Shown here: piece after piece, positions 10,674 to 31,100 of the stretch
Layout: every line of letters begins with the position of its first letter
Position numbering within the stretch: the stretch's first letter is position 1
Source of the DNA: an uncultured Actinomycetota bacterium
GTDB taxonomy: Bacteria; Actinomycetota; Actinomycetes; Mycobacteriales; SCTD01
Length of the DNA stretch: 64,000 bases
Reading direction: 5' to 3'
Assembly: GCA_963815615.1 (NCBI GenBank)
Contig: CAWFHF010000006.1
Coordinates: 135,870 to 199,869 of the forward strand
The notes under the pieces: model-generated
Databases searched by the model: none
The model's input: the letters and a program-made list of their open reading frames with translations, nothing else
Told to the model about the DNA's origin: nothing
Made by a program: the position numbers and the translations under genes

Positions 10674-10674
10674 C

Positions 10675-12872: not shown

Positions 12873-12903
12873 GCGGCAGAGCCTGGCGCACGGTCCGCGG
12901 GGC

Positions 12904-15679: not shown

Positions 15680-17874
15680 GCCGGGTGCTGATGGTCGACC
15701 CCAGCGCCCGGGGCGGCATCGCCAGCTACACCCGCCGCCTCACCGAGGCGCTGTCGGTGGTCGACCAGCCGGTCACGCTGCTGGCCAGCCGCGGCCTGCC
15801 CGAGCCGGCGCCGCTGACCGGCGTGCAGGTCCGGCGCGACCTGCCGGACCACGCCTGGGGCCGCCCGGAGGTCGTCGGGCCCGGCTTCTACGCCCGCCGG
15901 GCCGGGCACGCCCTCGACGCCGCCCAGGCCGTGGCGCGTGCCGTCCGGAGCCTGCGGCCCGACGTCGTCCACCTCCAGCACGGTCTCCACGCCCGCCTGG
16001 ACGCCGCGCTCGTGCGGGCCCTGCGGCGCAGCGCCGCGGTGGTCTGGACCGCCCACGACGTCGTCCCGTTCGAGGGCGACCCGCACGCCGCCCTCGCCCC
16101 GCTGCGCGAGGCCGACCTCGTCCTGGTGCACACCGAGCCGGCGCGGCAGCTGCTGCACGAGCAGGGGGTCGAGGCCCAGGTCGTGGCCCACGTGCCCGCC
16201 GGCGTTCCGGAGGGGGTCGACCCGGTGCAGGACCGGGCCGCCCTGCGCCGCGAGCTGGGGCTGCCGGGGGAGGGCCGGCTGCTGGCCGCCCTCGGCTTCG
16301 TGCGCGACTACAAGGGCTACGCCCTGCTCGCCGACGTGTGGGAGGCGCTCGGCGACGCCGCGCCCTGGCTGCTCGTCGTCGGGCAGCCCTGGGGACCGGC
16401 GGACGAGGAGGTCCTCGACCGGCTCGAGGCCACCGGGCGCGCGGTCGTCCGGCGCGGCTACGCGGACGACGCCGGCCTCGCCCGGGCCGCCCGGGCCGCG
16501 GACGCGCTCCTGCTGCCCCACGTGACGGCGAGCGACAGCGGGCTGCTGCACCTCGCCCGGGCCGTCGGGACGCCCGTGCTCGCCAGCGACGCGCCGCAGC
16601 TGGCGGCGTCCGTGCGGGCCACCGGCGGCGGCGACGTGCTGCCACGGACGGTCCCGGCCTGGTCGGCGGCTGTGGTGGGCGACCTGCCGGCTGCGCCCCC
16701 GGCCGCGGCCCCGCTGGCCGAGACCGGGAGAAGGCACGTCGCGGCGTACGCCGAGGCCGTCCGCCGTCGCGCGCAGGTCCGGCCGCGGCTGCTGCTGTGC
16801 TCCGACGCCCGGGCGTGGGGCGGGGCCGAGGTCGTCGCCGCCCAGCTGCTGCAGGACCTCGCGCCGTCCTGGCACCGCACGGTGCTCGGGGTCGACGCCG
16901 ACGTCGTGGGCCGGCTGCGCGGACGGCACGACCCCGCCGCGGCACGCGTCCTGCGACCGGTCGACGGCAAGCGCGACCTCCGGGGCGTCCTGGCCCACGT
17001 CCGTGCCGTGCGGGCGGCCCGGCCCGACGTCGTGCTGCTCAACCTGCAGGTCCCGTGGGCCGGGCAGTACGCGCTGCTGGCGGCCGGCCTGCTGCCCGGC
17101 GTCCCCGTCGTCGCCGTGGAGCACTGCCCGCTGCCGACGTCCAGCGCCGTCCAGCGCGCGGTCAAGCGGTGGGGAGCGCGCCGCCTCGCGGCCCACGTCG
17201 CGGTCAGCACGGCCGCCGCCCGACGCACCGAGGAGGTGACCGGCCTGCCCCGCGGCAGCGTCGGGGTCCTGCGCAACGGCGTGGTCCGGCCGCCGTCCGT
17301 CGAGCCCGACCCCCTGCCAGCAGGGCTCGCGCGGCCGGTGGTCGTCGCCGTCGGCCGGCTCGACCCCGTGAAGGGGTTCGACGTGCTCCTGCGCGCGCTG
17401 GCGCAGGTCCCCGACGCGTCGCTCTGGCTGCTGGGTGAGGGCGAGGAGCGGGAGGCCCTGGAGGCCCTGGCCGTCGAGCTCGGCGTGCAGGGACGCGTGC
17501 TGCTGCACGGCTGGCACGACGCGCCCCTGCGGGCGCTGGCCGCCGCGGACGTCGCCGCGCTGCCCAGCCGCTACGAGTCCTCGCCCTTCGTGGTCGCGGA
17601 GGCCCTGCTGATGGGGGTCCCGCTGGTGGCCAGCGACGTCGGCGGCGTGCACGAGCTGGCGGGGGAGGGGGCCGTGCTCGTCCCGCCGGACGACCCCGCT
17701 GCGCTGGCCGCAGCCCTCCGGGCGCTGCTCACCTTCCCGGAGGCGCGGGAGGGGCTGCGCGAGCGGGCCCGCTCGGCCGCGGACGCGCTGCCGACGACGG
17801 AGCAGGCGGCCGCGGCCTACGACCAGCTGTTGCGCGGGCTGCTGGGGTCGCGGAGGACCCACCAGGCCTCGTAG
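15676..17874 (+). CDS. Two-domain GT4-GT4 fusion glycosyltransferase (732 aa)
   Basis: ATG at 15676 overlaps the wzx stop (ATGA), in the frame of ORF 14140..17874. The first GT-B module runs MSRVLMVDPSARGGIASY..LLPHVTASDSGLLHLARAVGTPVLASD. The second runs RLLLCSDARAWGGAEVV..AALPSRYESSPFVVAEALLMGVPLVASDVGGVHEL. Confidence 0.8.
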   Translation: MSRVLMVDPSARGGIASYTRRLTEALSVVDQPVTLLASRGLPEPAPLTGVQVRRDLPDHAWGRPEVVGPGFYARRAGHALDAAQAVARAVRSLRPDVVHLQHGLHARLDAALVRALRRSAAVVWTAHDVVPFEGDPHAALAPLREADLVLVHTEPARQLLHEQGVEAQVVAHVPAGVPEGVDPVQDRAALRRELGLPGEGRLLAALGFVRDYKGYALLADVWEALGDAAPWLLVVGQPWGPADEEVLDRLEATGRAVVRRGYADDAGLARAARAADALLLPHVTASDSGLLHLARAVGTPVLASDAPQLAASVRATGGGDVLPRTVPAWSAAVVGDLPAAPPAAAPLAETGRRHVAAYAEAVRRRAQVRPRLLLCSDARAWGGAEVVAAQLLQDLAPSWHRTVLGVDADVVGRLRGRHDPAAARVLRPVDGKRDLRGVLAHVRAVRAARPDVVLLNLQVPWAGQYALLAAGLLPGVPVVAVEHCPLPTSSAVQRAVKRWGARRLAAHVAVSTAAARRTEEVTGLPRGSVGVLRNGVVRPPSVEPDPLPAGLARPVVVAVGRLDPVKGFDVLLRALAQVPDASLWLLGEGEEREALEALAVELGVQGRVLLHGWHDAPLRALAAADVAALPSRYESSPFVVAEALLMGVPLVASDVGGVHELAGEGAVLVPPDDPAALAAALRALLTFPEAREGLRERARSAADALPTTEQAAAAYDQLLRGLLGSRRTHQAS

Positions 17875-18620
17875 GCCATCGCCTGCCGCAGGGTCCACGT
17901 GCCGTGCGGCCCGTAGGTGAGCTGGTCGAGCTGCTCGCGGTAGGGCTGCAACGCGGCGAGCTTGGCGTCGAGCTGCTCCTCGCCGAGGCCCACGACCTGG
18001 TGGGGCAGGCCCCGTGGCAGCCGGAGCTTCGCGAGCGCGGAGGACCACTGGGTGGCCATGTCGTCGCGACGGCGGCGGAGCACATGGCGGGTCCACGCGT
18101 ACGGGAAGCGGGGCGTTCCGCCGCCCTCCACCCAGGCGGGCCAGCCCCAGCCGCAGGCGTACGGCTGGTCGGCGAACACGCGCACCCGCGGCGGGGCGGG
18201 CGAGCCCTCGACGGCCTGCAGGGCCGCGCGGGCGGTGAGCCGGTGGTCCACGTGCAGGCCCAGGCCGACCGGGATCCAGACCTCCTCGCTCTCCCGCAGG
18301 ACGGGTCGCAGCTGCTCGGTCAGGGCCGCGAGGGTGCCGCCGTCGCCCGCGCTGCGGTCGCGGTAGTCGACGTCGAGGTGGTCGAGGTGGACGGCGCGGG
18401 CGCCGCACGCGGCCAGGGCGCGCACGTCGGCGTCCCGGCGCGCGAGGGCGGCGTCGGCGGGGTCGGAGTAGCCGCACCGGGCGTCCCAGGCCGCCACCGG
18501 CCGGCCGCGCTCGGGCACGCCGGCGAAGCAGGTCACGGCCTGCGCCTCGGGGGCGGCCGTGAGCACGGACCAGACGCTGAGCACGGCGTCGTCCAGGTGC
18601 GGTGACACCACGGTCAGCAC
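17817..18620 (-). CDS. PIG-L/LmbE family deacetylase
   Basis: Intact 267-aa ORF containing VVSPHLDDAVLS and HVDH. Its 3' end overlaps the convergent GT gene by 58 nt. Confidence 0.85.
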   Translation of the reverse strand: MLTVVSPHLDDAVLSVWSVLTAAPEAQAVTCFAGVPERGRPVAAWDARCGYSDPADAALARRDADVRALAACGARAVHLDHLDVDYRDRSAGDGGTLAALTEQLRPVLRESEEVWIPVGLGLHVDHRLTARAALQAVEGSPAPPRVRVFADQPYACGWGWPAWVEGGGTPRFPYAWTRHVLRRRRDDMATQWSSALAKLRLPRGLPHQVVGLGEEQLDAKLAALQPYREQLDQLTYGPHGTWTLRQAMAYEAWWVLRDPSSPRNSWS

Positions 18621-18640
18621 GTCGGGTGCTCCTCTCTCCA

Positions 18641-18680
18641 GGTGGTCAGGACGGGCTCCAGGTGGTCAGGACGGGCTCCA
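18641..18680. repeat. Perfect 20-bp tandem duplication GGTGGTCAGGACGGGCTCCA x2 (followed by a partial GGGTCAGGGG)
   Basis: Read directly in the 81-bp spacer between the kinase-like gene stop (18702) and the PIG-L start (18620). Confidence 0.9.
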
Positions 18681-18701
18681 GGGTCAGGGGGCGCCCGGTG
18701 G

Positions 18702-20090
18702 TCAGCGGGCGCCCCAGTCCGTCAGCGCGGGCCAGGAGGCGCCGAGCGACGGGTCGGTCAGCCACGCCTGCGCCAGTTGCGCCGCCGGCGGGGGCTCGCC
18801 GCCGACGAGCGGTCCGCCCTGGGCAGCGTGGTGCATCCAGGTGGCCAGGGCGAGGGCGCCCACGGCCTCTTCCCCCACCCCGCAGGCGCGGGCCGCCCGG
18901 CGCAGGGCGGCGAACAGCAGGCCCGACGCCGGGAGCAGGCCGCGGTGCAGGTCGAGCGCGTGGCGGGTCCGCTCGGCGGTGGTGCGGGCGCCGTCGAGGG
19001 CGCCGAGGCCGTCGGTGAGCAGGTACAGCAGGTCGGACAGGGGCAGGCCGTACCCGCCGTCCTCCCAGTCGAGGACCGTGAAGAGGCCGGCCCGGTCGAC
19101 CACGACGTTCCAGGTGCCCAGGTCGGCGTGCACGAAGACCGCCGGCAGCGCCGCCAGGCGCGCCCGGGCAGGTCCCGGCAGCCCGTCGGGCAACCGCGCA
19201 GGCTCCGCCCTCCTGGTCGTCCGGGCGACGTCGGCCAGCCACTCCTCCATGTCGCGCAGGAGCTGCAGGCCCTCGGCCCGCCGCGCAGGCGTCTGGAGGA
19301 CCCACAGGAGCAGACCGCCGCTGCCCTGCGACTGCGCCAGCCAGGACAGCACGGGCCCTCCCGCCGGGCCGGCGAGCTCCCCGGTGCCCGACAGGCGCGG
19401 GCTGCGCCGGGCCACGGCCGGCAGGGCCGCGACCTGTCGCAGCGCGTGCGCCTCCTGCACGCCGGACGGCCGCAGGCCGGGGGCGCGCTCCACCTTGACC
19501 GCCGTGCGCCGGCCGGGCACCACCGCCACCACCCGGTTGCCGTCGACCTGCCCCCGGTAGGCGACCACGCACGGGCCGGCGACACCCGCGGCCTCCGCGA
19601 GGGCCGGCCAGCCGCCGCCGGGGCTCCACACGCAGGCGACGGGCAGGGGCGGCAGGGCTCCCAGGTCCAGGCAGCGCCGCACGACGGCGTTGCGCACCTG
19701 CTGCGCGCGGGACTGCGCACCCACCATGTCGACGAGCCCGGCGCGGCTGGCCGCCGGTGCGCGGGCGGGGACTGCGAGGGAGGGCCCCGCCGGCCCGGGC
19801 AGCAGCAGCCAGTCGCGCCCCCGCAGACCGGCGCGGGCCAGCGCCCGGCGCCCGGTCGCTCCGCGGCCGAGGACGACGAGGCCGCCGCCCGGGCGACCCG
19901 CGCCCACCACCGACGCGGGGTCGCACAGCACCGCGTCCGGCTCCCGGTCGGCCCCCACGACCTCGTGGCCGGCCGCGCGCAGGCCGTGGGCGAGAGAGGG
20001 CGGCAGGCCCAGCACCGCGACGCGCGCCGGCCAGGACGGCAGCAGGAACCGGAGGTCGGCGGCGCGCAGCGGGGCGACCGTCGGTTCCAC
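18702..20090 (-). CDS. Phosphotransferase (aminoglycoside-phosphotransferase/choline-kinase fold) with an N-terminal Rossmann-like extension
   Basis: ORF 18702..20147 contains VFVHADLGTWNVVVDRAGLFTVLDWEDGG (Brenner/APH motif). The start is uncertain: GTG at 20090, 20108 or 20147. Confidence 0.7.
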   Translation of the reverse strand: MEPTVAPLRAADLRFLLPSWPARVAVLGLPPSLAHGLRAAGHEVVGADREPDAVLCDPASVVGAGRPGGGLVVLGRGATGRRALARAGLRGRDWLLLPGPAGPSLAVPARAPAASRAGLVDMVGAQSRAQQVRNAVVRRCLDLGALPPLPVACVWSPGGGWPALAEAAGVAGPCVVAYRGQVDGNRVVAVVPGRRTAVKVERAPGLRPSGVQEAHALRQVAALPAVARRSPRLSGTGELAGPAGGPVLSWLAQSQGSGGLLLWVLQTPARRAEGLQLLRDMEEWLADVARTTRRAEPARLPDGLPGPARARLAALPAVFVHADLGTWNVVVDRAGLFTVLDWEDGGYGLPLSDLLYLLTDGLGALDGARTTAERTRHALDLHRGLLPASGLLFAALRRAARACGVGEEAVGALALATWMHHAAQGGPLVGGEPPPAAQLAQAWLTDPSLGASWPALTDWGAR

Positions 20091-20149
20091 CTCGTGATCC
20101 TCGCGCACCGGGGCAAGGCGGCAGGCGCTCCGCCCCGTAGCGTGCACCC

Positions 20150-21184
20150 GTGCGCGTCCTCGTCACCGGCTCCGGCGGCTACCTCGGCGCGGTGCTGGTC
20201 CCCCTCCTGCGGGCCGGGGGCCACGAGGTCGTCGGGCTCGACAGCGGGCTGTTCGACGCCTGCTCGCTCGGGCCCGACGTCGGCCAGGCCGAGGTCGGCG
20301 TCGACGTGCGCGACGTGACCGCCGCGCACCTGGACGGGGTCGACGCCGTCGTGCACCTGGCCGCTCTGTCCAACGACCCCCTGGGCGACCTGGCGCCGGA
20401 GACGACGCACGACGTGAACCACCTGGCCACCACCCGCCTGGCCCGGCTGGCCCGCGAGAGCGGCGTCCGCCGTTTCGTCTACTCCTCCACCTGCAGCGTC
20501 TACGGCGCCACCGGCGGCGACGCGCTCGTCGACGAGGACGCCCCGCTCGCGCCCGTCACGCCCTACGCGGTGAGCAAGGTCCGGGCCGAGCGCGACCTGC
20601 ACGCCCTCGGGACCGACGCCTTCACCACGGTGGCGCTGCGCAACGCCACCGTGCACGGCCTGTCGCCCCGGCTGCGCGCGGACGTCGTCGTCAACGACCT
20701 CGTGGCGTCAGCCGTCCTGACCGGCACCGTGAAGGTGCTCTCGGACGGCACTCCCTGGCGGCCGCTGGTGCACGTCGACGACGTCTGCGCGGCCTTCGCC
20801 GCGGTGCTCGAGGCGCCGCACGAGCGGGTCCACGGGAAGAGCCTCAACGTCGTCCGCCCCGAGGAGAACCACCGGGTGAGCGACGTCGCCGAGCTGGTGG
20901 CCGAGGCCGTGCCCGGCACGCGGGTGGAGATCACCGGCGAGCGCGGCGGCGATCCCCGCTCCTACCGCGTCGACCCGTCCCGCTTCCTCGACGCCGTCCC
21001 CGCCTGGCGCCCGACGTGGACCGTGGCGAGCGGCGCCGCCCAGCTCGCCGGGGCCTACGCACGGCTCGGCCTGACCGAGGTCGACGCCCGCACCCGCCTG
21101 GTGCGGCTGCGCTGGCTGGCCCACCTGCAGCAGTCGGGCCTGGTGGGCGCCGACCTGCGCTGGGCGGGCGCTCAGCGGCCGTAG
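20150..21184 (+). CDS. NAD-dependent epimerase/dehydratase (extended SDR)
   Basis: Intact 344-aa ORF with VLVTGSGGYLG, SSTCSVYG and YAVSK (YxxxK). Confidence 0.9.
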   Translation: MRVLVTGSGGYLGAVLVPLLRAGGHEVVGLDSGLFDACSLGPDVGQAEVGVDVRDVTAAHLDGVDAVVHLAALSNDPLGDLAPETTHDVNHLATTRLARLARESGVRRFVYSSTCSVYGATGGDALVDEDAPLAPVTPYAVSKVRAERDLHALGTDAFTTVALRNATVHGLSPRLRADVVVNDLVASAVLTGTVKVLSDGTPWRPLVHVDDVCAAFAAVLEAPHERVHGKSLNVVRPEENHRVSDVAELVAEAVPGTRVEITGERGGDPRSYRVDPSRFLDAVPAWRPTWTVASGAAQLAGAYARLGLTEVDARTRLVRLRWLAHLQQSGLVGADLRWAGAQRP

Positions 21185-22320
21185 AAGGAGCGCACCCCGT
21201 CGACGACGCGGTCGCGTGCCTCCTGCGGCATGACCGACCACAGCGGCAGGGTCACGACCTCGCGGGAGAGCTGCTCCGTGACGCGGAGGTCGCCCCGGCG
21301 GGCACCCGCGTACTGGGTGAACTCGTGGGCGCCCTGCCCCCAGTGGACGTTCGCCATGACCCCGCGGTCCCGGAGCGAGCGCAGCAGGTCGAGCCGGCTG
21401 TCCGGGTCGACCCGCACGACGTAGACGAACGGGCCGGTGCGCGACCAGTCCCAGCCCGTGGTGCGGACCTCGGGCACGTCGGCCAGGCGCTCGTCGTACT
21501 CGGCGCAGTACGCGCGCCGGTTCTCCACGAAGGAGTCGAGCTGCGCCAGCTGGGCCAGGCCGACGCTGGCCGGCACGGCACCCAGGTGGTAGCGGTAGCC
21601 CTGCCGCACGACGTCGTACTCCCAGAACCGCTCGTGGCGCGTCCGGGCCTCGAGGTCCTGGTCGGCGCCCAGCATGCGCCGCTCGCGGTTGACGACGTCC
21701 TCGGCGGCGTCCGGGGTGATCAGGGCCCCGCCCTCGAGCGTCGTCAGGGTCTTGACCGGGCCGAAGGAGAAGGCGACCAGGTCTCCGGCGGCCCCCACCC
21801 TGCGGCCGTCCGGCAGCAGCGAGCCCAGGGCGTGGGCGGCGTCCTCGATGACCCGCAGCCCGTGCTGGGCGGCCACCTCGTACGTGCCCGCGAGGTCACC
21901 GACGTGCCCCGCGTAGTGCATCGTCATCACGGCGACCGTGCGGTCCGTGACCAGCTCCCGCACGCGTGCGGGGTCGACGGAGAAGGTCGCCTCGTCGACG
22001 TCGGCGAACACGACGTCGGCCCCCGTCATCGACACGGCCTGGTGCGCCGCGACGTACGTGAAGGACGGGCAGACGACCTCCGTGTCGGGGCCGGCACCGG
22101 CCAGCAGGGCCGCCAGGTGCAGCGCTGCCGTGCAGCTGTTCGTCGCCGTGAGGTGCCGGTCCTGCAGGCCCAGCCAGCTGCCGAGCTCGCGCTCGAAGCG
22201 GCCGGTCGCCGGCCCGAGGCCCAGGTAGCCGACGTCCAGCGCGGCGAGCACGGCGGTCCGCTCGTCGGCCCCGATCTGCGGCCTGAACACCGGCAGGACG
22301 TCCTCGGTCTGGGTCTTCAC
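21172..22320 (-). CDS. DegT/DnrJ/EryC1/StrS-family PLP-dependent sugar aminotransferase
   Basis: ORF 21172..22440 with GTG at 22320 (VKTQTEDVLPVFRPQIG). Contains IEDAAHALGS and FSFGPVKTLT, with the catalytic Lys retained. Confidence 0.9.
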   Translation of the reverse strand: MKTQTEDVLPVFRPQIGADERTAVLAALDVGYLGLGPATGRFERELGSWLGLQDRHLTATNSCTAALHLAALLAGAGPDTEVVCPSFTYVAAHQAVSMTGADVVFADVDEATFSVDPARVRELVTDRTVAVMTMHYAGHVGDLAGTYEVAAQHGLRVIEDAAHALGSLLPDGRRVGAAGDLVAFSFGPVKTLTTLEGGALITPDAAEDVVNRERRMLGADQDLEARTRHERFWEYDVVRQGYRYHLGAVPASVGLAQLAQLDSFVENRRAYCAEYDERLADVPEVRTTGWDWSRTGPFVYVVRVDPDSRLDLLRSLRDRGVMANVHWGQGAHEFTQYAGARRGDLRVTEQLSREVVTLPLWSVMPQEARDRVVDGVRSFYGR

Positions 22321-22387
22321 CTGTTCCTCGTCCTCCGGTCGGGGTCCTCGGACTGTCTCTCGGGAGGTCCGGGCCGGACCTGGAGGG

Positions 22388-23437
22388 GTGGGTACGGTCC
22401 CGCACGTGCCGGGGCCCGCCATCACCGTCGTCGTGCCCACGCACGACCGGCTCGACTACCTGCGGCAGGCCGTGGGGTGCGTGCTGGGCCAGACCCGGGG
22501 CGACCTGCGGCTCGTGGTCAGCGACAACGCCTCCACCGACGGGACAGCGGAGTGGCTCGCGGGACTGCGCGACCCGCGGGTGTCCCTGGTGCGCCACCCC
22601 GTCGACGTGGGGATGACGGCCAACTTCAACAGCGCGCTGGCCGCCGTCGACACCCCCTACACGGCGCTGCTGCTCGACGACGACCTGTGGCACCCGCGCA
22701 TGCTCGAGCGCTGCCTGCCGGCCCTGGAGGGCGACGCGCGCGTCGGGATGGTCCACGCGGCCTTCAGCGTCCTCGACGCCGAGGGGCGGGTGCTGCAGGC
22801 GCGCGAGGACTGGCACGCCCCCGGCCGGGCGGTCGACGGGCGGCGACCCGGGCGGGCCCTCGTCGAGGACCTGCTGGCGCGGTCGAACCCGGTGATGACC
22901 AGCTCGGTGCTCCTGCGGACACGGGCGCTGCCGCCGCAGCTGTTCGACGCGCGTGACGTGCAGGCGGAGGACCTCGGGCTGTGGCTGCGCCTGGCCCTGG
23001 ACCACGACGCCACCTTCGTGCCGGAGCCCCTCGCGTCGTTCCGCCGGCACGGGGGCAGCGTCTCGGTGGGCGCGTCCCACGACGTCGGCGAGGGCACGGT
23101 GCCCGGCTTCCGGCAGGTGGCGCAGCGACGGGCCGCGAAGGAGCGGTTCCTGGACGAGGAGGGCGCGCGTCTGGGCGACGTCCCCTCCTGGCGGCGACGC
23201 GTGGCGAGGCAGGCCTGCGACGACGCCCTCGGCACCGTGTGGGCCCTGACCCGCGCGCAGCGCGACCTGCGCGGGACCCGCGCCCTGCTCGGCCAGGCGG
23301 CGGCGGAGGTGCCCGAGGTGCGCCGCGACCCGCGCGCCGCGCGGCTGCTGGTCCTGGCGACCGCGGCGACCGCGCGCCGGGCGCTCAGTCCTGCCAGGTC
23401 CTCCACGGCGCCCGGCCGGAGTCCCACAGCCCGTTGA
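22388..23437 (+). CDS. Family 2 glycosyltransferase
   Basis: Intact 349-aa ORF with ITVVVPTHDRLDYLRQAVGCVLGQT..LVVSDNASTDGT..LLLDDDD-type DxD. Confidence 0.85.
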   Translation: MGTVPHVPGPAITVVVPTHDRLDYLRQAVGCVLGQTRGDLRLVVSDNASTDGTAEWLAGLRDPRVSLVRHPVDVGMTANFNSALAAVDTPYTALLLDDDLWHPRMLERCLPALEGDARVGMVHAAFSVLDAEGRVLQAREDWHAPGRAVDGRRPGRALVEDLLARSNPVMTSSVLLRTRALPPQLFDARDVQAEDLGLWLRLALDHDATFVPEPLASFRRHGGSVSVGASHDVGEGTVPGFRQVAQRRAAKERFLDEEGARLGDVPSWRRRVARQACDDALGTVWALTRAQRDLRGTRALLGQAAAEVPEVRRDPRAARLLVLATAATARRALSPARSSTAPGRSPTAR

Positions 23438-24199
23438 GGTGGGTCCACTCGCGGTAGGTGTCCATGCCCATCCAGAACCCGCGTGGGCGTGCAGGCCGAG
23501 CTGTCCCTCGTGGGCGAGCCGCTGCAGCGGCGCGTGCTCCAGCACCAGGTCCGGGTCGTCGTCGAGGTCGTCGTCGAGGAAGGACCGCTCGAAGACGAAG
23601 TAGCCGCCGCTGACCCAGCCGTCGGGCGCGGTCGGCTTCTCGTTGAAGGCGTGACGGCCCGAGGGTCGTCGTCGACGGTAGCTCGCCGTAGCGGCCGGTC
23701 GGGTGGACGCCCGTGACGGTCGCGGTCAGGCCGGTGCGGGCGTGCGCCTGCAGCAGCGCCGGCACGTCGACGGCGCCGACGCCGTCGGCGTACGTGGCCA
23801 TGAACGGGCCGTCGCCCAGGTGCTCGCGGCAGCGGCGCAGCCGGGCACCGGTGCCGTGAGCAGGCCGGTCTCGACGAAGGTGACCTCCCAGTCCTCGACG
23901 CCCACCTCGTTGTGGAAGACCGGGGCGCTGCCGTCGCCCATGTGCAGGGTGAAGTCGGAGACGTTCTCCCGGTAGTGCAGGAACCAGCGCTTGATGTCCT
24001 CGCTCCGGTAGCCGAGCGCCAGCACGAAGCGCGTCACCCCGAACGCGGCGTAGGTCTTCATGACGTGCCACAGGACCGGCTTGCCGCCGATCGCGACGAG
24101 CGGCTTGGGCAGGCGCTCGTCGACGTCGCGCAGGCGCGTGCCGAGGCCGCCGCAGAGGATGACGACCGGGACGTCTCGCGGGTCGGGGACGGCGTGCAC
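23385..24199 (-). pseudogene. rfbF: Glucose-1-phosphate cytidylyltransferase; about 3 frame breaks
   Basis: VVILCGGLGTRLR..LPKPLVAIGGKPVLWHVMKTYAAFG..VTFVETG is in ORF 23726..24199. GTGARLRR..FMATYADGVGAVDV..TVTGVHPTGRYGEL and FWMGMDTYREW..LW are in 23385..24350. LEHAPLQRLAHEGQL is in 21896..23545. Confidence 0.85.
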
Positions 24200-24243
24200 G
24201 CGGCTCCTCGGGGTGGCAGGCGGGCGGACCGTAGCCTTCGGGG

Positions 24244-25494
24244 GTGAGCACGGGCGGGAGGGTCACGGCGTGCCGCGGGTGCGACGGGCCCGCTCCGGTG
24301 CCGGTCCTGGACCTCGGGCGCACCGCTGTCGCGAACCGTCTGCCGTCCACGCCCGACGCCGACGAGGCGCGCTACCCGCTCGAGGTCGGGCTGTGCGAGC
24401 GGTGCGCGCTGGTGCAGCTGACGTGGGCCCTGCCGGCGGAGGACCTGTTCGACGCCGACTACCCCTACCTGTCGTCCGTCACGGACAGCCTCGTGCAGCA
24501 CGCGCGCACCCACGCCCTCGGGCTCGTGGCGCAGCGGGGCCTCGGTCCGGAGTCCCTCGTCGTCGAGGTCGGGAGCAACGACGGCTACCTGCTCCAGCAC
24601 CTCGTCGAGGCGGGCGTGCCGGTCCTCGGGGTCGAGCCGACCCCGGGGCCCGCCGCCGCCGCCCGGGCCCGGGGGGTGCGCACCGTGGAGGCCTTCTTCG
24701 GCAGCGCTCTCGCCCGGCGTCTGGTCGCCGAGCACGGGCGGGCCGACGTCGTGGTCGCGAACAACGTGCTCGCACACGTGCCCGACCTGCAGGACGTCCT
24801 CGCGGGGGTGGCCCTGCTGCTCGGCCCGGACGGCGTGGCCACGGTCGAGAACCCGGGGGTGGGGCAGCTGCTCGACCGCGTCGCGTTCGACACCGTCTAC
24901 CACGAGCACTACTGCTACCTGTCGTGCCTGAGCGTGCAGGCGGTGGCGGCACGGGCAGGCCTGGTGCTCGTCGACGCGGAGGAGTTCCCGGCGCTGCACG
25001 GCGGGACCCTGCGCTGGCACCTGGCCCACGGGGGGACCCCGTCCCCGCGCCTGAGGGAGCGGCTGGCCGACGAGCGGGCCCGCGGCCTGGACCGGGTCGC
25101 GACCTACCTCGGCTTCGGGGAGCGGGTCCGCGGGCTGCAGGACGCCCTGCGCGCCGAGCTCGACCGGCTCCACGACGCCGGCCGCACGGTCGCGGCCTAC
25201 GGCGCTGCCGCCAAGGGCGCGACGCTGCTCGGCACCACCGGCGTCGACGTCTCCCGCGTGGCCTTCGTCGTCGACCGCAGCCCCGCCAAGCAGGGCCGGT
25301 ACCTGCCGGGCACGGGCATCCCCGTGCTGGCGCCGGAGGAGCTGCTGGCGCGCCGGCCCGACGTCGTTCTCCTGCTGGCGTGGAACGTCGCGGACGAGGT
25401 GGTCCGCCAGCAGGCGGACTACCTCGCCGGCGGCGGTGCCTTCCTGGTCCCGGTCCCCGCCCTGAGCTACCTCGGCGGACCGGCTCCCGCCTAG
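24244..25494 (+). CDS. SAM-dependent NDP-hexose C-methyltransferase-like protein with N-terminal zinc knuckle
   Basis: Intact 416-aa ORF with CRGCDG..CERCALVQL, then VVEVGSNDGYLL (SAM site) and a C-terminal AYGAAAKGATLL domain. Confidence 0.8.
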   Translation: MSTGGRVTACRGCDGPAPVPVLDLGRTAVANRLPSTPDADEARYPLEVGLCERCALVQLTWALPAEDLFDADYPYLSSVTDSLVQHARTHALGLVAQRGLGPESLVVEVGSNDGYLLQHLVEAGVPVLGVEPTPGPAAAARARGVRTVEAFFGSALARRLVAEHGRADVVVANNVLAHVPDLQDVLAGVALLLGPDGVATVENPGVGQLLDRVAFDTVYHEHYCYLSCLSVQAVAARAGLVLVDAEEFPALHGGTLRWHLAHGGTPSPRLRERLADERARGLDRVATYLGFGERVRGLQDALRAELDRLHDAGRTVAAYGAAAKGATLLGTTGVDVSRVAFVVDRSPAKQGRYLPGTGIPVLAPEELLARRPDVVLLLAWNVADEVVRQQADYLAGGGAFLVPVPALSYLGGPAPA

Positions 25495-26518
25495 CGGATC
25501 TCGGGCAGGCAGCCGGCGCCGCGGCCGAGGGCGCCCAGGCCGGCCAGGTCGCCGCTGCCGAAGCCGGTGACGTCGCGGCCGATGACCGCGTTCATCACCT
25601 GGGAGGCGTCCTCGACGTGGGCCAGGCCGACGGCGTGGCCGAGCTCGTGCAGGGCGTAGGTGAACCAGGAGCCGGCGCCGCTGGTCCCCGCCCTGGTCGC
25701 GCTGTTGAGGGCGACGACGCCGGAGGCGATCTGGGTGCGGTTGGCGCCGGTGCTGTCGTAGGAGCCGGTCCACAGGACGCGGGTCATGCCGACGGTGGTC
25801 GCGGTGCGGCCGGCGAGCAGGTCGGAGGCGCTGGCGCTGGTCCAGCCGACCAGCAGCGGCTGGAACTGGGCCCAGCCCTGCTGCAGGTAGCCGCCGGTCG
25901 GGCGCCGCGGTCGGTGGTGCCCTGGTAGGCGAAGGTCAGGCCGGTGCGGCTGCTGAGCTCGGCGACGGCGGCCTGGACGGCGGCGAGGCCGCCCGCGGGG
26001 GCACCGGCGGGGTTGAAGCTCCACGGGACGTCGGCGCAGGGGTTCCAGCGGACCGGGGCGCCGGCGTCGACGTGCAGGAAGGCGTAGGCGCCGGTGCGCG
26101 CGGCCGGGGCGGCGGCGGGCAGGGCGGCCGGGCGCGACCGGCGGCAGGGCCGCACGGGCTTGGTCACCGGGAGCGGCAGCGGGCTTGGTCACCGGGGCGG
26201 CAGCGGGGCGGGTGGTCGTGCGGGTCGGTCGTCGCCGGGCGGGTGGTCGTGCGCGTGGCCGGGCGGGCGGTCGCCTTCGGCCGGGCGGCGGCGCGGACGG
26301 CGGCTGGGGACCGTCGTGCGCAGGGTGCTGCCGGTCGGGGCGGCGAGCCGGCTGCGGGTGACCGCCGCGGACCGGGAGAGCGCGCTGCGGGTGCCGGCCT
26401 GGTCCGCGGAGACGGCGGAGGGGGCGGGCGTGCCGGCCGTCGCCGTGGCGGGGACCGCCGCGAGGGGAGCGGCGAGCAGCCCGAGGGCGAGGACGGAGGA
26501 GAGGCAGGACCGGCGCAT
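25491..26518 (-). pseudogene. Secreted zinc metalloprotease (matrixin-like HExxHxxGxxH); 2-3 frame breaks
   Basis: The signal peptide MRRSCLSSVLALGLLAAPLAAVPATA is in ORF 26189..26518. AYAFLHVDAGAPVRWNPC..LTFAYQGTTDR is in 25784..26167. The catalytic YALHELGHAVGLAH is in 25491..26192. Confidence 0.75.
26156..26205. repeat. 25-bp tandem duplication (GGGCTTGGTCACCGGGAGCGGCAGC / GGGCTTGGTCACCGGGGCGGCAGCG) inside the protease linker, followed by a 17-bp direct repeat at 26206 and 26237
   Basis: Read directly. The unit length is not a multiple of 3 and coincides with the frame break between ORFs 26189..26518 and 25784..26167. Confidence 0.85.
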
Positions 26519-26748
26519 GCTCAGTGGTTCGGAGACCGCGACGGCGGGTCTGGAGGCGGAGCGGGACTGTTCACCCCTGCGGGCGAACCCGACATCGTGC
26601 GTCCGAACGGCGCAGTCCGTCTGGTCACCCGGGAGGGTGGTCTCGGCGCGGGCCTGGCCAGGACGCGCCCCGGTCGTGACGCTGCGTCACCGGCGGGATC
26701 GACGCCCGATCGGGTGAGATCGACGTCTGCCGCGGCTAGCCTCGGCGG

Positions 26749-27285
26749 GTGCGCGCAGCCCTGGCCCTCGGCCTCACGGCCCTGCTGGCCACCGGCTGCT
26801 CGGGCAGCCCCGCCCCCCGCGCGGCCGGGCCCTCGCCGACGCCGTCGACCACCGCTCCGTCGGCCGCCGCCGCGGCGGCGGCCCCCTCCTGCCCGGCCGG
26901 CGGGGGCGACCGCGCCTGGCCGGCCGGCGTCCCGGCCGACCTCCCCGTCCCGCCGACGGCGGAGCTGGGCCCGGCCGAGCAGAGCCCCGGCGGCCTGACC
27001 CTGGTGCGCTTCACGACGTCGCAGTCGGTGCGCGACGGCGTCGTCTTCCTGTCCCGCGCCCTGCAGCCGGCCGGCTTCACCCTCGGGCGCGGCGACGCGG
27101 AGGCGCTCGAGGCCGACGTGCCCTTCAGCCGCGGGCCGCTGCGCGGGCTGCTCAAGATGATCGCCGACCAGCCGTGCCGCACGCAGTGGGTGCTGGCCCT
27201 GCAGACCGGCCCCGGCCCGTCCGCGGGCGCGCCGCTGCTGCAGCCCGTGACGACGGCGAGCCCCAGCCCGCTGCCCTTCGGCTGA
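26749..27285 (+). CDS. Lipoprotein of unknown function
   Basis: Intact 178-aa ORF with lipobox LLATGC, then a Pro/Ser/Ala linker and a globular C-terminus. Confidence 0.65.
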   Translation: MRAALALGLTALLATGCSGSPAPRAAGPSPTPSTTAPSAAAAAAAPSCPAGGGDRAWPAGVPADLPVPPTAELGPAEQSPGGLTLVRFTTSQSVRDGVVFLSRALQPAGFTLGRGDAEALEADVPFSRGPLRGLLKMIADQPCRTQWVLALQTGPGPSAGAPLLQPVTTASPSPLPFG

Positions 27286-27314
27286 GCCGCCCGCTGCAGG
27301 GCTAGGGTCCGCCG

Positions 27315-28246
27315 GTGGACCCGGGCGTGCTGCTGCAGGCGGTCCTCACCGGGCTGTCCGCCGGGGCCGTGCTCGGTCTGGTCGCCCTGGGCTTCACGCT
27401 CGTCGCCGGGACCGTGCGGGTGCTGCACCTGGCGCACGGCGACGTCGTCGTCGCGTCCGTGCTGACGGCGGGCGTGGTCGTGCTGGGGACGACGCCGGTG
27501 GCGACCCGGCTGGCGCCCGCACCGGCCGTGGCGCTCGTGCTGCTGGTCCTGTCCGCCGGCACCGGGCTCGCCCTGGGCGTGGCCCTGCTGGCCGTGCGCC
27601 CCTGGCTCCCCGACGTCGCCGCGGGCCGCGAGGGCGACCCCCTCGGCTGGCTGGCCGGGACGGTCGCGGCGGGGCTGGTGCTGCGCGAGGCGCTCGGCCT
27701 GCTGCTGCCCGGCGAGGGCTACGCCGTGCCCGACCCGCTGCGGCTGTCGGGGTGGGCCGAGCGCGGCGTGGTCGACCTGCCGCTCGGGGGCGTGCTCGAC
27801 GCCCGGGTGCCCGCCGTCCTCGTCCTCGGCCGCCGCGGTCGGCCTGCTGGCCGAGCGGCTGGTCGTGCGGTCGCGGGCCGGGCGGGCGATGAGGGCGGTC
27901 GCCGAGGACCCCGACGCCGCGGTGCTCTGCGGCGTCCCGCCCCGGCGCACCCTGCTGCTGGCCTTCGGCACGGCCGGGCTGCTCGCCGGCGTCGCCGGCC
28001 TGCTGGACGCCCCGGGCGGCGCGGTGTCGGTCGACGACGGCGTCGTGCTGGGGCTGGCCGGGGCGGCGGCGGCCCTGCTCGGCGGCCTCGGCTCGCTGCG
28101 CGGCGCCCTGGTCGGGGGCCTCGCGCTGGGGGTCGCCCAGCAGCTGGTCGTCGTCGGGCTGGGGGCCGGCGTGGTCCGACGTCGTCCCGCTGGGGCTGCT
28201 GGTCGTGCTGCTGGCCGTCCAGCGGGCGCCCCGGGTGCTCGTCTGA
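27315..28246 (+). pseudogene. livH: Branched-chain amino acid ABC transporter permease (LivH-like); 2 frame breaks
   Basis: LLQAVLTGLSAGAVLGLVALGFTLVAG is in ORF 27315..28640. RAMRAVAEDPDAAVLCGV..LLGGLGSLRGALVGGLALGVAQ is in 27865..29946. The end WSDVVPLGLLVVLLAVQRAPRVLV* was read by eye, with TGA at 28244-28246. Confidence 0.8.
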
Positions 28247-29196
28247 GCGCGGTCGAGGTCGCCACGGCCCTCTACCTGCTGCTGGCGGCCTTCGGCCTGG
28301 CCCTGCCGGTGGCCGCGGGCCTGCCGGTGCTCGGCCAGGGCGCGTTCGTGGCGGTCGGCGGCGTCGGCACGGCGCTGCTGGGGCCGGGCGGTGCGGGGCT
28401 CCCGCTCGGGGCGGCCTGCGCCCTGGCGGTGCTCACGGCCGGGCTGGCCGGGCTGGCTGGTCGCCCTCGGGGCCGGCCGGCTCGAGGGCGCGGCCCTCGG
28501 CCTCGCGACCTGGGGGCTCGCCTGGCTGGTGCACCGCGTCCTGCTGTCCTTCCCCGCGGTCTCGGGCGGCGCCGCCGGGCTGGTCCGCCCGACGCCGGCC
28601 CGGCTGGTCAGCCCGGTGCTCGGGGTCGAGGTGGTGCTGACCCCGCGGGTGCACGTCGTCGTCGCAGGGGTGCTGTGCCTGCTGGCCGCGGGAGCGCTGG
28701 CCCGGCTGGCCCGCGGCCCGGCCGGGCGGGACCTGGCGGCGCTGCGCGAGGGGCCGGCCCTGGCGGCGTCGCTCGGCGTGCCGGTGGCGGCGCGGCGGCG
28801 GGCGGTGCTGACGGCGGGCGCCGCGCTCGGCGGCCTGTCCGGCGCGGGCACGGTGGTGCTGCTCGGCCTGGTGGCGCCTGCCGACGTCGGCCCGCTGCTG
28901 TCGCTGCAGCTGTTCGTGGCGGTGCTGGTCGGCGGGGCGGGGCGCTGGTGGGGCCCGGTGCTCGGGGTGGCGCTGCTGACCGTGCTGCCGCGCGCCGCCG
29001 ACGCCCTCGGGGCCCTCGCCGGGTCGGACGGGCAGCGGCTGCGCGGCCTGCTGACCGCGCTGCTGCTGGTGGCGGTGCTGGCGCTGCGCCGGCTGCCGGC
29101 GCGCACGACCACGGGGGACGGCACCGGCGCGGCCACCCCGGGCGACGGCACGGGTCCGACCACCTCCCCGTCGCTCACCAGCCCCGGTGGGCGCCC
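28243..29196 (+). pseudogene. livM: Branched-chain amino acid ABC transporter permease (LivM-like); frame break near 28440; 3' end unresolved
   Basis: VEVATALYLLLAAFGLALPVAAGLPVLGQGAFVAVGG is in ORF 27865..29946. RDLAALREGPALAASLGV..GLVAPADVGPLLSLQLFVAVLVGGAGRWWGPVLG is in 28391..29458. The only start candidate is CTG at 28243 (CTGA overlap with the livH stop). No stop occurs before livG in the reading frame. Confidence 0.65.
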
Positions 29197-29946
29197 GTGC
29201 TGCTGCGCGCCCGCGGCGTCGAGGTGGCGTTCGGCGCGGTGCGGGCGCTCGACGGCGTCGGGCTGGACCTGCGCGGCGGACAGGTGCACGCCCTGGTGGG
29301 CCCGAACGGCTCGGGCAAGTCGACGCTGCTGCGGGTGCTGTCGGGCGAGCTGCTCCCCGACGCCGGCGCGCTCGAGGTCGCCGGCACCGCCGCCGCGCCC
29401 GGGGTGGCGACGGGGGTGGTGCGCACCCCGCAGCGCACGGTCGTGCTGCCCCGCCTGACCCCGGCCGAGCAGGTCGCCGTCGGTGCCCGCGGCGGCAGCG
29501 CGACCCGCGGCGCCGTCCTGCGCCACCTGCTGGCGACGCCGGGCAGCAGGGTCGCGGAGGCCCGGACCCGGCGCGCGGTGTCCGCGGCGCTCGCCGCCAC
29601 CGGGCTCGGCGGGGCGGCCGACGCCGACCCGGCGACCCTCGCCGTGGGGGAGCAGCGGCTGCTGCAGGTCGCCCGGGCGGTGGCCACGGGGGCGACGGTG
29701 CTGCTGCTGGACGAGCCGGCCGCGGGCATGACCGCGGGGGAGCGGGTGCGGCTGGTGCAGGTGCTCCGGGCGCTGGCCGGCGGCGGGGCGGCCGTGCTGC
29801 TCGTCGAGCACGACCTGCGCCTGGTGGGCGCCGTCGCCGACCGCGTGACGGTGCTCGTCGCCGGCCGGGTCGCGGCGTCCGGCACCATCGAGCAGGTGCG
29901 CGCCGACCCCGCGGTGCGCGCGGCCTACCTGGGAGGTGCGGCGTGA
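29197..29946 (+). CDS. livG: ABC transporter ATP-binding protein (LivG-like)
   Basis: GTG at 29197 in the frame of ORF 27865..29946. Contains GPNGSGKSTLL (Walker A), a LAVGEQRLLQVARA signature and LLLDEPAAG (Walker B). Confidence 0.85.
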   Translation: MLLRARGVEVAFGAVRALDGVGLDLRGGQVHALVGPNGSGKSTLLRVLSGELLPDAGALEVAGTAAAPGVATGVVRTPQRTVVLPRLTPAEQVAVGARGGSATRGAVLRHLLATPGSRVAEARTRRAVSAALAATGLGGAADADPATLAVGEQRLLQVARAVATGATVLLLDEPAAGMTAGERVRLVQVLRALAGGGAAVLLVEHDLRLVGAVADRVTVLVAGRVAASGTIEQVRADPAVRAAYLGGAA

Positions 29947-31098: not shown

Positions 31099-31100
31099 CG

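Follow-up and report, generated by a model that had tools for sequence, protein, structure and literature searches.

Five genes at positions 20150-25494 of the window (the whole 64,000-nucleotide stretch of DNA that was analysed) are best explained as one nucleotide-sugar module within a Wzx-type cell-envelope polysaccharide locus of a Frankiales-like actinobacterium, an explanation that, taken as a whole, we give a somewhat better than even chance. The likely product, as predicted from the encoded protein families, is CDP-4-amino-4-deoxy-3-C-methyl-hexose.

Gene content of the locus

The region contains five open reading frames with a third-position GC of 0.94-0.97 (ORF analysis), in a locus that is high-GC and actinobacterial. 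An earlier note, made from the letters and translations, had placed here an extended SDR, a DegT protein that retains the PLP-binding lysine, a GT2, rfbF and an NDP-hexose C-methyltransferase, and all five were found in those places, the methyltransferase being of the TcaB9 type. The HMM assignment that it had proposed as a check returned the Pfam families given below for the SDR, DegT, GT2 and methyltransferase genes, and its quoted motifs were present: GSGGYLG and YAVSK (SDR), FSFGPVKTLT (DegT) and CxxC...CxxC (methyltransferase). The features are as follows:

18702-20147, minus strand: APH-family kinase-like gene, adjoining the SDR gene (Pfam APH, 1.6e-10)
20150-21184, plus strand: extended SDR of the 'SSCS' class, 344 aa (Pfam Epimerase, 7e-44)
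21172-22320, minus strand: DegT-family PLP aminotransferase, reading frame open to 22440 (Pfam DegT_DnrJ_EryC1, 2.7e-85)
22388-23437, plus strand: GT2 glycosyltransferase, 349 aa (Pfam Glycos_transf_2, 5.5e-21)
23385-24199, minus strand: rfbF, glucose-1-phosphate cytidylyltransferase, interrupted (TIGR02623)
24244-25494, plus strand: NDP-hexose C-methyltransferase of the TcaB9/KijD1/TylC3 type, 416 aa (Pfam Methyltransf_13, Methyltransf_23 and Methyltransf_14)

A canonical 4,6-dehydratase, which the note had also failed to recognise, was found neither in the gene set nor anywhere in the window. The APH-family protein is 100% identical and equally positioned in the independent contig L086, and its gene is missing from L089 and L091; it is a conserved neighbour and at most a candidate pathway member. 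The predicted decoration can be called rare only with respect to glycan chemistry described so far, whereas the protein families each have thousands of homologues, Frankia, Geodermatophilus and Streptomyces included.

The methyltransferase, aminotransferase and glycosyltransferase

The methyltransferase is of the sugar 3-C-methyltransferase type and not of the lipid or protein type, as indicated by its full-length PDB matches to KijD1 (1.1e-83), TcaB9 (8.6e-83) and MtmC (7.3e-73) and by the retention of its zinc and catalytic residues. The zinc cysteines C10, C13, C51 and C54, which form the N-terminal CxxC..CxxC knuckle described earlier, are conserved, all five TcaB9 catalytic positions are kept (Y73, H178, Y219, E221 and H222), and the Pfam domains were detected with E-values of 1e-15 to 1e-49. 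It shares 41% identity with TcaB9 and 69% with the L083 protein, and averages 43% against the homologues from 80 genome loci.

The DegT protein is transaminase-type, as had been proposed: its lysine (FGPVKTL) falls in the same alignment column as that of the ArnB motif FSFHAIKNIT, and its best matches are 4-aminotransferases. We propose that it is a C-4 transaminase. The best PDB match was ArnB (1mdo, 2.6e-53), the nearest solved structures being ArnB, TlmJ and perosamine synthase, and the best NCBIfam matches, PseC (232 bits) and ArnB (211 bits), were both under the cut-off. The start probably lies near 22320, since an independent gene call gave 382 aa and the Pfam coverage runs from residue 55 onward. 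Identity is 99.5% in L086 and 63-89% in L083-L085, L087-L089 and L091/L092. The GT2 protein, probably the dedicated transferase of the product sugar, has an LLDDD motif and a GTG start preceded by GGAGGG; orthologues stand beside the cassette in L087 (73%), L089 (59%) and L091 (50%), and the convergent overlap of 53 nt between its gene and rfbF has a counterpart in L089.

Linkage in related loci

The established features of the set are the family membership and catalytic residues of its proteins, their gene linkage, and an either/or pattern with RfbG. RfbF was encoded within 10 kb of a methyltransferase homologue in 69 of the 80 genomes, a linkage that supports the predicted CDP activation. 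The genes for RfbF, SDR, DegT and GT2, together with the methyltransferase gene where the contig extends that far, recur in relatives, in which rfbF is intact. The arrangements DegT|MT-RfbF-SDR in L083 (identities of 75, 69, 63 and 47%, respectively) and rfbF-GT2-DegT-SDR in L089 support the prediction that the five genes act as one module, and the order SDR|DegT|GT2 is found in L086 (99%), L087 and L088.

The 80 loci, a non-random sample of methyltransferase homologues chosen by peptide patterns, included 32 with an RfbG bearing the S/T-D-K motif, 26 with an SSCS-class SDR and none with both (Fisher p = 3.6e-8), a pattern that shared ancestry among the loci could inflate. The SDR fills the middle slot of rfbF-X-MT in L009, L020 and L041, a slot that elsewhere is that of RfbG, and the L091/L092 cassette, RfbF-DegT-SDR-GT2, has neither a methyltransferase nor a further redox enzyme. 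The aminotransferase of that cassette still requires a keto substrate, so that the presence of the SDR there supports a keto-forming role.

Identity and role of the SDR

Because the SDR class and RfbG never occur together in the 80 loci, and because L091 has only RfbF-DegT-SDR-GT2, the SDR is most likely the enzyme that forms the 4-keto group, and we propose it as a CDP-hexose C4-oxidising enzyme. It has the motif Y-S-S-T-C-S-V-Y-G besides YAVSK, and it meets no NCBIfam cut-off (galE, 91 vs 262; CDP_4_6_dhtase, TIGR02622, 21 vs 278 bits); TIGR01181 gave 60 bits, well under its cut-off. Assignment as a 4,6-dehydratase found no support in the TIGR02622 score or in the S-T-C-S motif, which replaces S/T-D-K or T-D-E. 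The earlier suggestion that the SDR may stand in for the dehydratase thus held as to its place in the cassettes and failed on motif and profile.

The nearest solved relative, by sequence and predicted fold, is the C4-dehydrogenase Cj1427, which was the top PDB sequence match (6vo6/6vo8, 9.5e-31) and, with an AlphaFold model of pLDDT 92, the top Foldseek match (6vo8, E = 5e-25, TM 0.77/0.87). The 5,6-dehydratase TunA came second in the fold search, and several 4-epimerases scored nearly as high. With 26-29% identity, and with Cys115, invariant in the SDR class, missing in Cj1427, the SDR is at most a candidate orthologue. Cj1427 is described as a C4-dehydrogenase/oxidase that uses alpha-ketoglutarate and yields a 4-keto sugar without deoxygenation (PMC10680097, PMC7949155, PMC9978623). 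Since the SDR replaces the dehydratase and resembles this enzyme, the product may retain its 6-OH, and 'deoxyhexose' is therefore not established.

The version that follows the earlier note, with the SDR as an unorthodox CDP-glucose 4,6-dehydratase and a kansosamine-like CDP-4-amino-4,6-dideoxy-3-C-methyl-hexose as product, seems unlikely to us. The replacement of RfbG in the genomes fits it as well, TunA is the second structural match, the invariant Cys115-Ser116 after the catalytic Ser/Thr could in principle give acid/base chemistry, and TcaB9, KijD1 and the TylC3-type enzymes act, to our knowledge, on 6-deoxy sugars only. However, the Asp/Glu or Asp-Lys pair that comes after the catalytic Ser/Thr in dTDP-, CDP-, GDP- and UDP-sugar 4,6-dehydratases is missing throughout the SDR class, both dehydratase profiles scored well under their cut-offs, and the closest characterised enzyme halts at the 4-keto stage. 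A similarly low probability attaches to the SDR being a 4-ketoreductase or epimerase, with the dehydratase encoded elsewhere and the SDR and DegT enzymes perhaps serving separate sugars (a C-methyl deoxyhexose and an amino sugar). The SDR is GalE-like by HMM, its S-S-C motif recalls GDP-fucose synthase, which is an epimerase/reductase, many SSCS-class loci contain an RmlC-like epimerase and would need a final reduction, and the window covers only 64 kb of the genome. Yet a reductase would be expected beside a dehydratase and the SDR is never found with RfbG, several RfbG cassettes have a separate G-T/S-C-A-E-Y SDR class in the position where a reductase would be expected, the SDR is the sole possible keto-former in RfbF-DegT-SDR-GT2 (L091) and rfbF-SDR-MT-DegT (L009), and it forms with DegT a convergent pair conserved across all close relatives.

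Frameshifts in rfbF

The rfbF gene adjoins the methyltransferase gene, as previously described, but is not intact: single nucleotides are missing at four sites (near 23856, 23679, 23655 and 23480), which divides it into four reading-frame segments, with residues 1-115 alone sharing one frame and the remainder lying in two others. On the TIGR02623 profile, positions 3-104 are covered by a fragment in one frame and positions 105-163 by a fragment in another. With four bases restored, a continuous protein of 272 aa is obtained that spans positions 3-255 of 255 and scores 276 bits (cut-off, 300); the intact L083 orthologue scores 269, and the L091 orthologue passes with 315. The scores below the cut-off could mean that the nucleotide or the hexose differs. 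The repaired protein is 73% identical to the intact 272-aa orthologue of L089, 63% to that of L083 and 62% to that of L091, and the related contig L093 has extra bases at all four deletion sites.

Since four added bases yield a full RfbF without other decay, the breaks are probably assembly indels, and we consider consensus errors of a long-read assembly their fairly likely origin, the alternative being a very recent inactivation. That the pathway is off, with rfbF a true pseudogene and the module either decaying early or using an unlinked cytidylyltransferase, is possible but rather improbable. Four breaks in this 0.8-kb gene are far above the window-wide frame-break rate; they fall within 0.4 kb, with none in the 4.5 kb of the set that flank them, and over the 3.67 kb where this flanking sequence could be compared with L086 the two do not differ by a single indel, so the assembly of the window is not uniformly poor. 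The database holds from this genome a 157-aa N-terminal RfbF fragment alone and no near-identical intact RfbF, no paralogue was found within the window, and the adjacent peptidase gene and the liv genes are broken likewise. Against a pseudogene, there is no substitutional decay in rfbF (third-position GC of 0.98, 41 of the 43 columns conserved at >=90% retained, bit score as high as an intact orthologue's), frameshifts of the same kind occur in the housekeeping gene galE, the broken genes, galE and liv among them, all keep a third-position GC of 0.97-1.0, the remaining four genes of the set have no breaks, and a relative's contig of this locus, with the assembler-style name contig_94449, is itself noisy (209 gap openings in 13 kb). 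A dead rfbF lacking a paralogue, which the earlier note regarded as refuting its pathway, thus describes the gene as assembled and the window, but the breaks look artefactual.

Proposed pathway and comparison with known systems

Substrates, regiochemistry, step order and the fate of C-6 are given here as we infer them. RfbF would make CDP-glucose from CTP and glucose-1-phosphate, and the SDR, in the place that RfbG holds in sister cassettes, would oxidise C-4 to give CDP-4-keto-hexose; as it is most likely a Cj1427-like C4-dehydrogenase, 6-deoxygenation need not happen. The TcaB9-type methyltransferase, a type whose mechanism requires an adjacent 4-keto group, would then use that group to form a C-3 enolate and add a methyl from SAM, the DegT enzyme would transaminate C-4, and GT2 would transfer the sugar of CDP-4-amino-4-deoxy-3-C-methyl-hexose to the glycan. 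The CDP, C-methyl and amino parts of the product named earlier, a CDP-activated, C-methyl-branched amino-deoxyhexose, are thus backed by sequence and linkage, whereas its '6-deoxy' part is unsupported.

The TcaB9, KijD1 and TylC3-MtmC pathways (dTDP-tetronitrose, kijanose and mycarose) share with the window the three-part methyltransferase architecture, the Cys4 zinc site, the five catalytic positions, and DegT and SDR partners of like enzyme kinds. However, they belong to antibiotic clusters and use dTDP (RmlA/RmlB), 2,3-dehydratases and 6-deoxy or 2,6-dideoxy substrates, whereas the set in the window has an RfbF (CDP) partner in a cell-envelope glycan locus and lacks RmlB, RfbG and a 2,3-dehydratase. 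In rfbF-rfbG-methyltransferase(-rmlC) cassettes, the commonest arrangement (32/80 loci), the methyltransferase next to RfbF belongs to the clade seen here (41-51% identity), with a true CDP-glucose 4,6-dehydratase (S/T-D-K) where the window instead has the SSCS-class SDR; the window has a DegT aminotransferase in addition. In one such cassette, Sinorhizobium meliloti SMb21416-21418, the genes are annotated as ddhA, ddhB and NDP-hexose 3-C-methyltransferase (PMC4053727). A literature search found no characterised product of a CDP-linked C-methyltransferase, in either the RfbG or the SDR version.

In the Cj1427 pathway, too, later tailoring enzymes receive a 4-keto sugar nucleotide that has not been 6-deoxygenated, but its substrate is a GDP-heptose, its motif is T-N-S-G-Y-G as against S/T-C-S-x-Y-G in the SDR class of the window, and its partners are epimerases and reductases instead of a C-methyltransferase and an aminotransferase. 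A direct succession of sugar-nucleotide dehydrogenase and PLP aminotransferase is found in WbpB/WbpE of Pseudomonas aeruginosa, and by analogy a similar coupling may exist between the SDR and DegT enzymes. WbpB, a Gfo/Idh/MocA-fold enzyme, acts at C-3 of a UDP-sugar; its mechanism is ping-pong, with alpha-ketoglutarate serving to regenerate NAD+. Among actinobacterial cell-envelope sugars, the N-acyl-kansosamine of the Mycobacterium kansasii lipooligosaccharide is 4-amino-4,6-dideoxy-3-C-methyl-2-O-methyl-L-mannose, for which we know of no established biosynthetic genes or activating nucleotide. Kansosamine is methyl-branched at C-3 and aminated at C-4 like the predicted product, but it is 6-deoxy.

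Gene content and setting

The window has a GC content of about 77% and carries long spurious ORFs throughout; coding frames were picked by third-position GC together with frame-aware HMM searches. The set under study, at 20150-25494, consists of five genes in alternating orientation:

20150-21184, plus strand, SDR
21172 to about 22320, minus strand, DegT gene
22388-23437, plus strand, GT2 gene
23385-24199, minus strand, rfbF
24244-25494, plus strand, methyltransferase (MT) gene

The ORF families and motifs quoted in an earlier note, read from the sequence without searches, were all confirmed, the families by Pfam and NCBIfam; the exception is rfbF, which is not intact. Upstream of the set lie a GT2, a Wzx-type flippase, a double GT4, a PIG-L deacetylase and an APH-like kinase, with a DUF4012 gene and a GH26 gene farther upstream. 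In Parafrankia, a homologue of the methyltransferase lies in a locus whose gene content resembles that of the window, and the nearest named relatives of the set's proteins are found in Frankiales MAGs, Frankia and Geodermatophilus, indicating that the setting is an actinobacterial cell-envelope polysaccharide locus. The APH-family kinase-like gene (18702-20147, minus strand) is immediately upstream of the SDR, and a 100% identical protein occupies the matching position in L086, an independent contig. Since the anomeric sugar kinases AmgK and NahK are members of the APH family, this kinase might feed the cytidylyltransferase.

The methyltransferase and its probable association with CDP-sugars

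The methyltransferase has a three-part Pfam architecture, with a zinc domain (PF08421, residues 10-69), a SAM-binding fold (PF13489, 103-243) and a C-terminal sugar-binding domain (PF08484, 251-405), and matched the solved sugar 3-C-methyltransferases KijD1, TcaB9 and MtmC over its full length (E = 1e-83 to 7e-73). The next PDB matches were UbiG-type enzymes (E = 1e-5), so a non-sugar methyltransferase was rejected and the clustering with lipid or protein methyltransferases envisaged in the earlier note was not found. The zinc-binding cysteines C10, C13, C51 and C54 are conserved, and Y73, H178, Y219, E221 and H222 align, once the PDB chain is shifted by 2 residues, with Tyr76, His181, Tyr222, Glu224 and His225 of TcaB9, which we take to be its catalytic residues, a list that reportedly comes from mutagenesis work. 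The cysteines and the five catalytic positions were conserved in 74-88 of 88 aligned methyltransferase sequences, and the Pfam domains and TcaB9 alignment bear out the predicted CxxC zinc site and NDP-hexose C-methyltransferase layout. Identity to TcaB9 was 41%; for the 80 listed genome homologues it averaged 43%, and for Frankia-type and metagenome relatives it was 57-69%. By analogy with the nearest solved enzymes, the protein would use SAM to methylate an NDP-4-keto-hexose at C-3.

A GTG start at 24244 agrees with the solved homologues; the methyltransferase gene and rfbF, which diverge, then begin only 44 bp apart. The database gene call P0001 (398 aa) begins past the first CxxC and would lose half of the zinc site (window 24244-24298).

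Gene neighborhoods were compared in 80 genome loci among the matches listed for the methyltransferase, whose relatives there are 40-51% identical. An RfbF homologue was present within 10 kb of the methyltransferase in 69 of these 80 loci, mostly around -2 or +1 kb, a linkage that ties this clade to a cytidylyltransferase and supports the CDP-hexose, as the earlier note had proposed. The most frequent layout among the 80 was rfbF-rfbG-MT-rmlC, where RfbG is the CDP-glucose 4,6-dehydratase; Sinorhizobium meliloti SMb21416-21418 are annotated with a layout of the rfbF-rfbG-MT type (PMC4053727).

Frame breaks in rfbF and elsewhere in the window

As assembled, rfbF is not one reading frame: it has four 1-nt deletions, and its fragments match TIGR02623 (RfbF) in different frames. 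One frame covers residues 1-115, a second the following ~60 and a third ~10 more, while the C-terminal part has ~75 residues in the first alternative frame again and the final 31 in the second. Inserting single bases at four positions (about 23856, 23679, 23655 and 23480) restored a 272-aa RfbF that scored 276 bits over profile positions 3-255 of 255. Both this protein and the intact orthologue of the related locus L083 (269 bits) fall below the curated cut-off of 300.25 bits; the L091 orthologue (314.9 bits) is above it. The repaired protein aligned end to end with the intact orthologues of L089 (73% identity, 272 aa), L083 (63%) and L091 (62%), and retained 41 of the 43 columns conserved at 90% or more (family baseline 0.97, minimum 0.86). 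The assignment as a glucose-1-phosphate cytidylyltransferase is thus backed by the full profile span and the conserved residues, although the frame is broken and the score is under the cut-off.

Frame breaks were also detected in three features downstream of the set:

25491-26192, minus strand, matrixin-type (M10) zinc peptidase with HELGH; the coding frame covers the C-terminal two thirds only, with a break near 25899
27300-31100, plus strand, branched-chain amino-acid (liv)-type ABC transporter (two permeases, ATPase, binding protein), in pieces in different frames
36850-37825, plus strand, galE (UDP-glucose 4-epimerase), with a single frameshift at about 37104-37112; repaired, it scores 333.8 bits on TIGR01179 (cut-off 262)

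The rfbF breaks are probably assembly indels, and a real, very recent inactivation leaving a pseudogene is the less likely reading. The latter would agree with the concentration of the four breaks within 0.4 kb, with none in the remaining 4.5 kb of the set, and with an assembly that is clean over window 18727-22396, as shown by the gap-free match of that interval to L086 (99.67% identity), which ends 1 kb short of rfbF. From the source genome, the protein collection contained just the 157-aa RfbF fragment. A search of independent assemblies for a near-identical intact RfbF yielded none above 73% identity, which is compatible with either reading. However, if the four indels were real, numerous GC-to-AT substitutions would be expected beside them, whereas the repaired gene has no further decay, with a third-position GC of 0.98, nearly all conserved columns kept and a score equal to that of an intact orthologue, which favors the artefact. 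The single break in galE, a housekeeping gene otherwise undamaged, also points to assembly indels, and the fragmented liv genes, with breaks near 27827, 28455, 29147 and 30466 and with the BPD_transp_2 and Peripla_BP_6 profiles each divided between ORFs, still show a third-position GC of 0.97-1.0. About 20 frame breaks occur in the whole 64 kb, in scattered patches.

L093 (ENA ERZ25039498 contig_94449), a 26.5 kb contig from a relative with about 92% identity, is equivalent to window 12330-25468 and contains the whole locus. It has extra bases at all four rfbF sites (two at about 23856, one at each of the others), yet it is itself too noisy to decide between artefact and pseudogene, with every gene fragmented and 209 gap openings over 13 kb. 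Its name looks like long-read assembler output, and it illustrates the possible noise level in assemblies of this lineage. No paralogues of RfbF, RfbG or RmlC were found within the 64-kb window; the concern in the earlier note that rfbF might be dead with no paralogue therefore applies to the sequence as assembled, but the breaks themselves are probably artefactual. Indels in high-GC assemblies can imitate pseudogenes and mislead pathway calls.

About eight coding-frame changes were also observed in 4.4 kb at window 5100-9500, where there was no match to Pfam or to the tested Frankia proteins flanking Frankia's own methyltransferase locus. This stretch may represent an unknown gene with many frameshifts or have an unusual composition.

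An SDR class in place of the CDP-glucose 4,6-dehydratase

The SDR scored 21.4 bits on TIGR02622 (RfbG), against a cut-off of 278. Its motif, S-T-C-S-V-Y-G, has Cys-Ser after the catalytic Ser/Thr, at the point where CDP-glucose dehydratases have Asp-Lys (S/T-D-K in 32/32 RfbG-class neighbors in the listed loci) and RmlB has Asp-Glu. By the usual sequence tests, it is not a 4,6-dehydratase. Among the 80 listed loci, 32 carried an RfbG-class SDR, 26 an SDR of the window's class (S-S-C-S-x-Y-G, hereafter SSCS) and none carried both (one-sided Fisher p = 3.6e-8, a value inflated by shared ancestry). RfbF was also present in 23 of the 26 SSCS-class loci, and in three (L009, L020 and L041) the SSCS SDR occupied the central slot of rfbF-X-MT.

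The suggestion in the earlier note that the SDR fills the dehydratase role is consistent with this replacement of RfbG; in its literal form, an atypical 4,6-dehydratase giving a 6-deoxy product, it is improbable, with the profile score far under the cut-off and neither the S/T-D-K nor the T-D-E acid/base pair present. The SDR is most likely the keto-forming step, since the aminotransferase needs a keto substrate and the SDR is the sole redox enzyme of the L091 cassette. A third SDR class (G-T/S-C-A-E-Y; G-T/S-C-x-E-x) was found beside both kinds of cassette, many rfbF-rfbG-MT and two SSCS-type (L003, L013, L015, L019, L032, L037, L038, L041 and L071). This third class, rather than the SSCS class, is the likelier reductase, and is probably a 4-ketoreductase finishing non-aminated C-methyl sugars.

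The best PDB sequence match of the SDR was the C4-dehydrogenase Cj1427 (6vo6, 9.5e-31; second-best match 3e-22). A fold search with its predicted model (pLDDT 92) placed 6vo8 and 6vo6, whose identity as Cj1427 was taken from the search description, at ranks 1-6, with 4-epimerases and TunA scoring nearly as high. Identity to Cj1427 is 26-29%, with T-C-S-V-Y-G against T-N-S-G-Y-G, so that the resemblance may concern the mode of action and carries no family assignment. Cj1427 oxidizes a GDP-heptose at C-4, giving a 4-keto sugar with no deoxygenation, and its bound cofactor is recycled with alpha-ketoglutarate (PMC10680097, PMC7949155, PMC9978623). A C4-dehydrogenase retaining the 6-OH is a candidate reading of the SDR, indirectly supported by the cassette arrangements; we give it somewhat less than an even chance, still ahead of the dehydratase.

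A second SDR in the window (36850-37825), considered as the missing dehydratase, was rejected, as the repaired protein is GalE (334 bits, cut-off 262). A metagenome scan with the set's SDR returned one true family member, L094 (MT-RfbF-SDR), the other matches being distant SDRs.

Aminotransferase and glycosyltransferase

The DegT protein matched the Pfam DegT/DnrJ/EryC1 family (287 bits). Dehydratases of this family have His in place of the PLP Schiff-base lysine; here the lysine is retained and aligns with that of the ArnB motif FSFHAIKNIT, in agreement with the transaminase reading in the earlier note, and an E1/ColD-type dehydratase was rejected. None of the named equivalog cut-offs (including PseC, ArnB, WecE and DesI) was reached, the top score being for PseC (232 versus 423). 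The top matches were C-4 aminotransferases, both among HMMs (PseC, ArnB) and among solved structures (ArnB, TlmJ, perosamine synthase), with the C-3 enzymes DesV and QdtB ranking below, a ranking that suggests the specificity. Since neither a 3,4-ketoisomerase nor a 2,3-dehydratase is present alongside, amination at C-4 would be the simplest reading. The GT2 assignment was confirmed by a GT-A domain (PF00535, residues 13-125) and an acidic DxD-type motif, LLDDD; a GT2 accompanies the cassette in L087, L089 and L091.

Proposed pathway and distribution

In the proposed route, RfbF would make CDP-glucose, the SDR would oxidize it to a CDP-4-keto-hexose, the methyltransferase would methylate this intermediate at C-3, DegT would aminate it at C-4, and the GT2 would move the finished sugar onto the glycan. 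We consider a five-gene module of this kind somewhat better supported than not. As a speculative refinement, alpha-ketoglutarate from DegT might re-oxidize the SDR cofactor; WbpB, whose cofactor is re-oxidized by alpha-ketoglutarate, would with WbpE be the model for such cycling. More tentatively, the cassettes may represent an undescribed CDP-sugar branch, distributed in many phyla, in which a Cj1427-like SDR, oxidizing C-4 without 6-deoxygenation, replaces the CDP-glucose 4,6-dehydratase and supplies either a C-3-methyltransferase or a PLP 4-aminotransferase, or the two together, perhaps with WbpB/WbpE-like cycling. The products would be 6-hydroxylated 4-amino-4-deoxy-(3-C-methyl)-hexoses destined for cell-envelope glycans.

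The enzyme families are all known, and the RfbG-type cassette is routinely annotated. In a literature search, neither the replacement of RfbG by the SSCS class nor the joint use, on a CDP-bound sugar, of an SSCS SDR with C-methyltransferase and 4-aminotransferase was found described. Most known branched-chain amino sugars come from antibiotics made through dTDP; here, antibiotic-type methyltransferase chemistry appears to be coupled to CDP within a locus for a cell-envelope glycan. The SSCS cassette was spread over many phyla; in about one third of the sampled cassettes (26/80 methyltransferase loci among the matches listed) an uncharacterized SDR class stands where a 4,6-dehydratase is expected. 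If this SDR were a C4-dehydrogenase, it would be a new entry point into CDP-4-keto-hexoses and would predict 6-hydroxy C-methyl or 4-amino hexoses in these glycans. The earlier note had called the sugar a rare decoration: it would be unusual in described glycan chemistry, but among genomes the cassette is no rarity, as each of three protein searches returned homologues in the thousands.

Related cassettes

Several related contigs carry parts of the set in other arrangements. L083 has DegT / MT-RfbF-SDR; L086, L087 and L088 have SDR / DegT, after which comes a GT2 (L087) or a GT4 (L088); and L089 has rfbF-GT2-DegT-SDR-PIG-L...flippase, a mirror of the window order. In L091 and L092 the order is RfbF-DegT-SDR-GT2, with RfbF above the TIGR02623 cut-off and the methyltransferase absent. 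The amino-sugar cassette seems to be older, with the methyltransferase added to it later.

The L091 block (9239-14021), which lacks the C-methyltransferase, is immediately beside an SRAP gene. In window 20150-31784, ~6.7 kb containing the methyltransferase, peptidase and liv genes separates rfbF from SRAP, whose relative orientation is opposite to that in L091.

The 7-kb metagenome contigs L084 and L085 carry neither an SDR nor RfbF. At L084 5625-7301 and L085 5298-6974, a GMC-family FAD oxidoreductase follows the methyltransferase of a DegT / MT pair (75% and 66% identity), and this oxidoreductase may provide a third route to the keto sugar.
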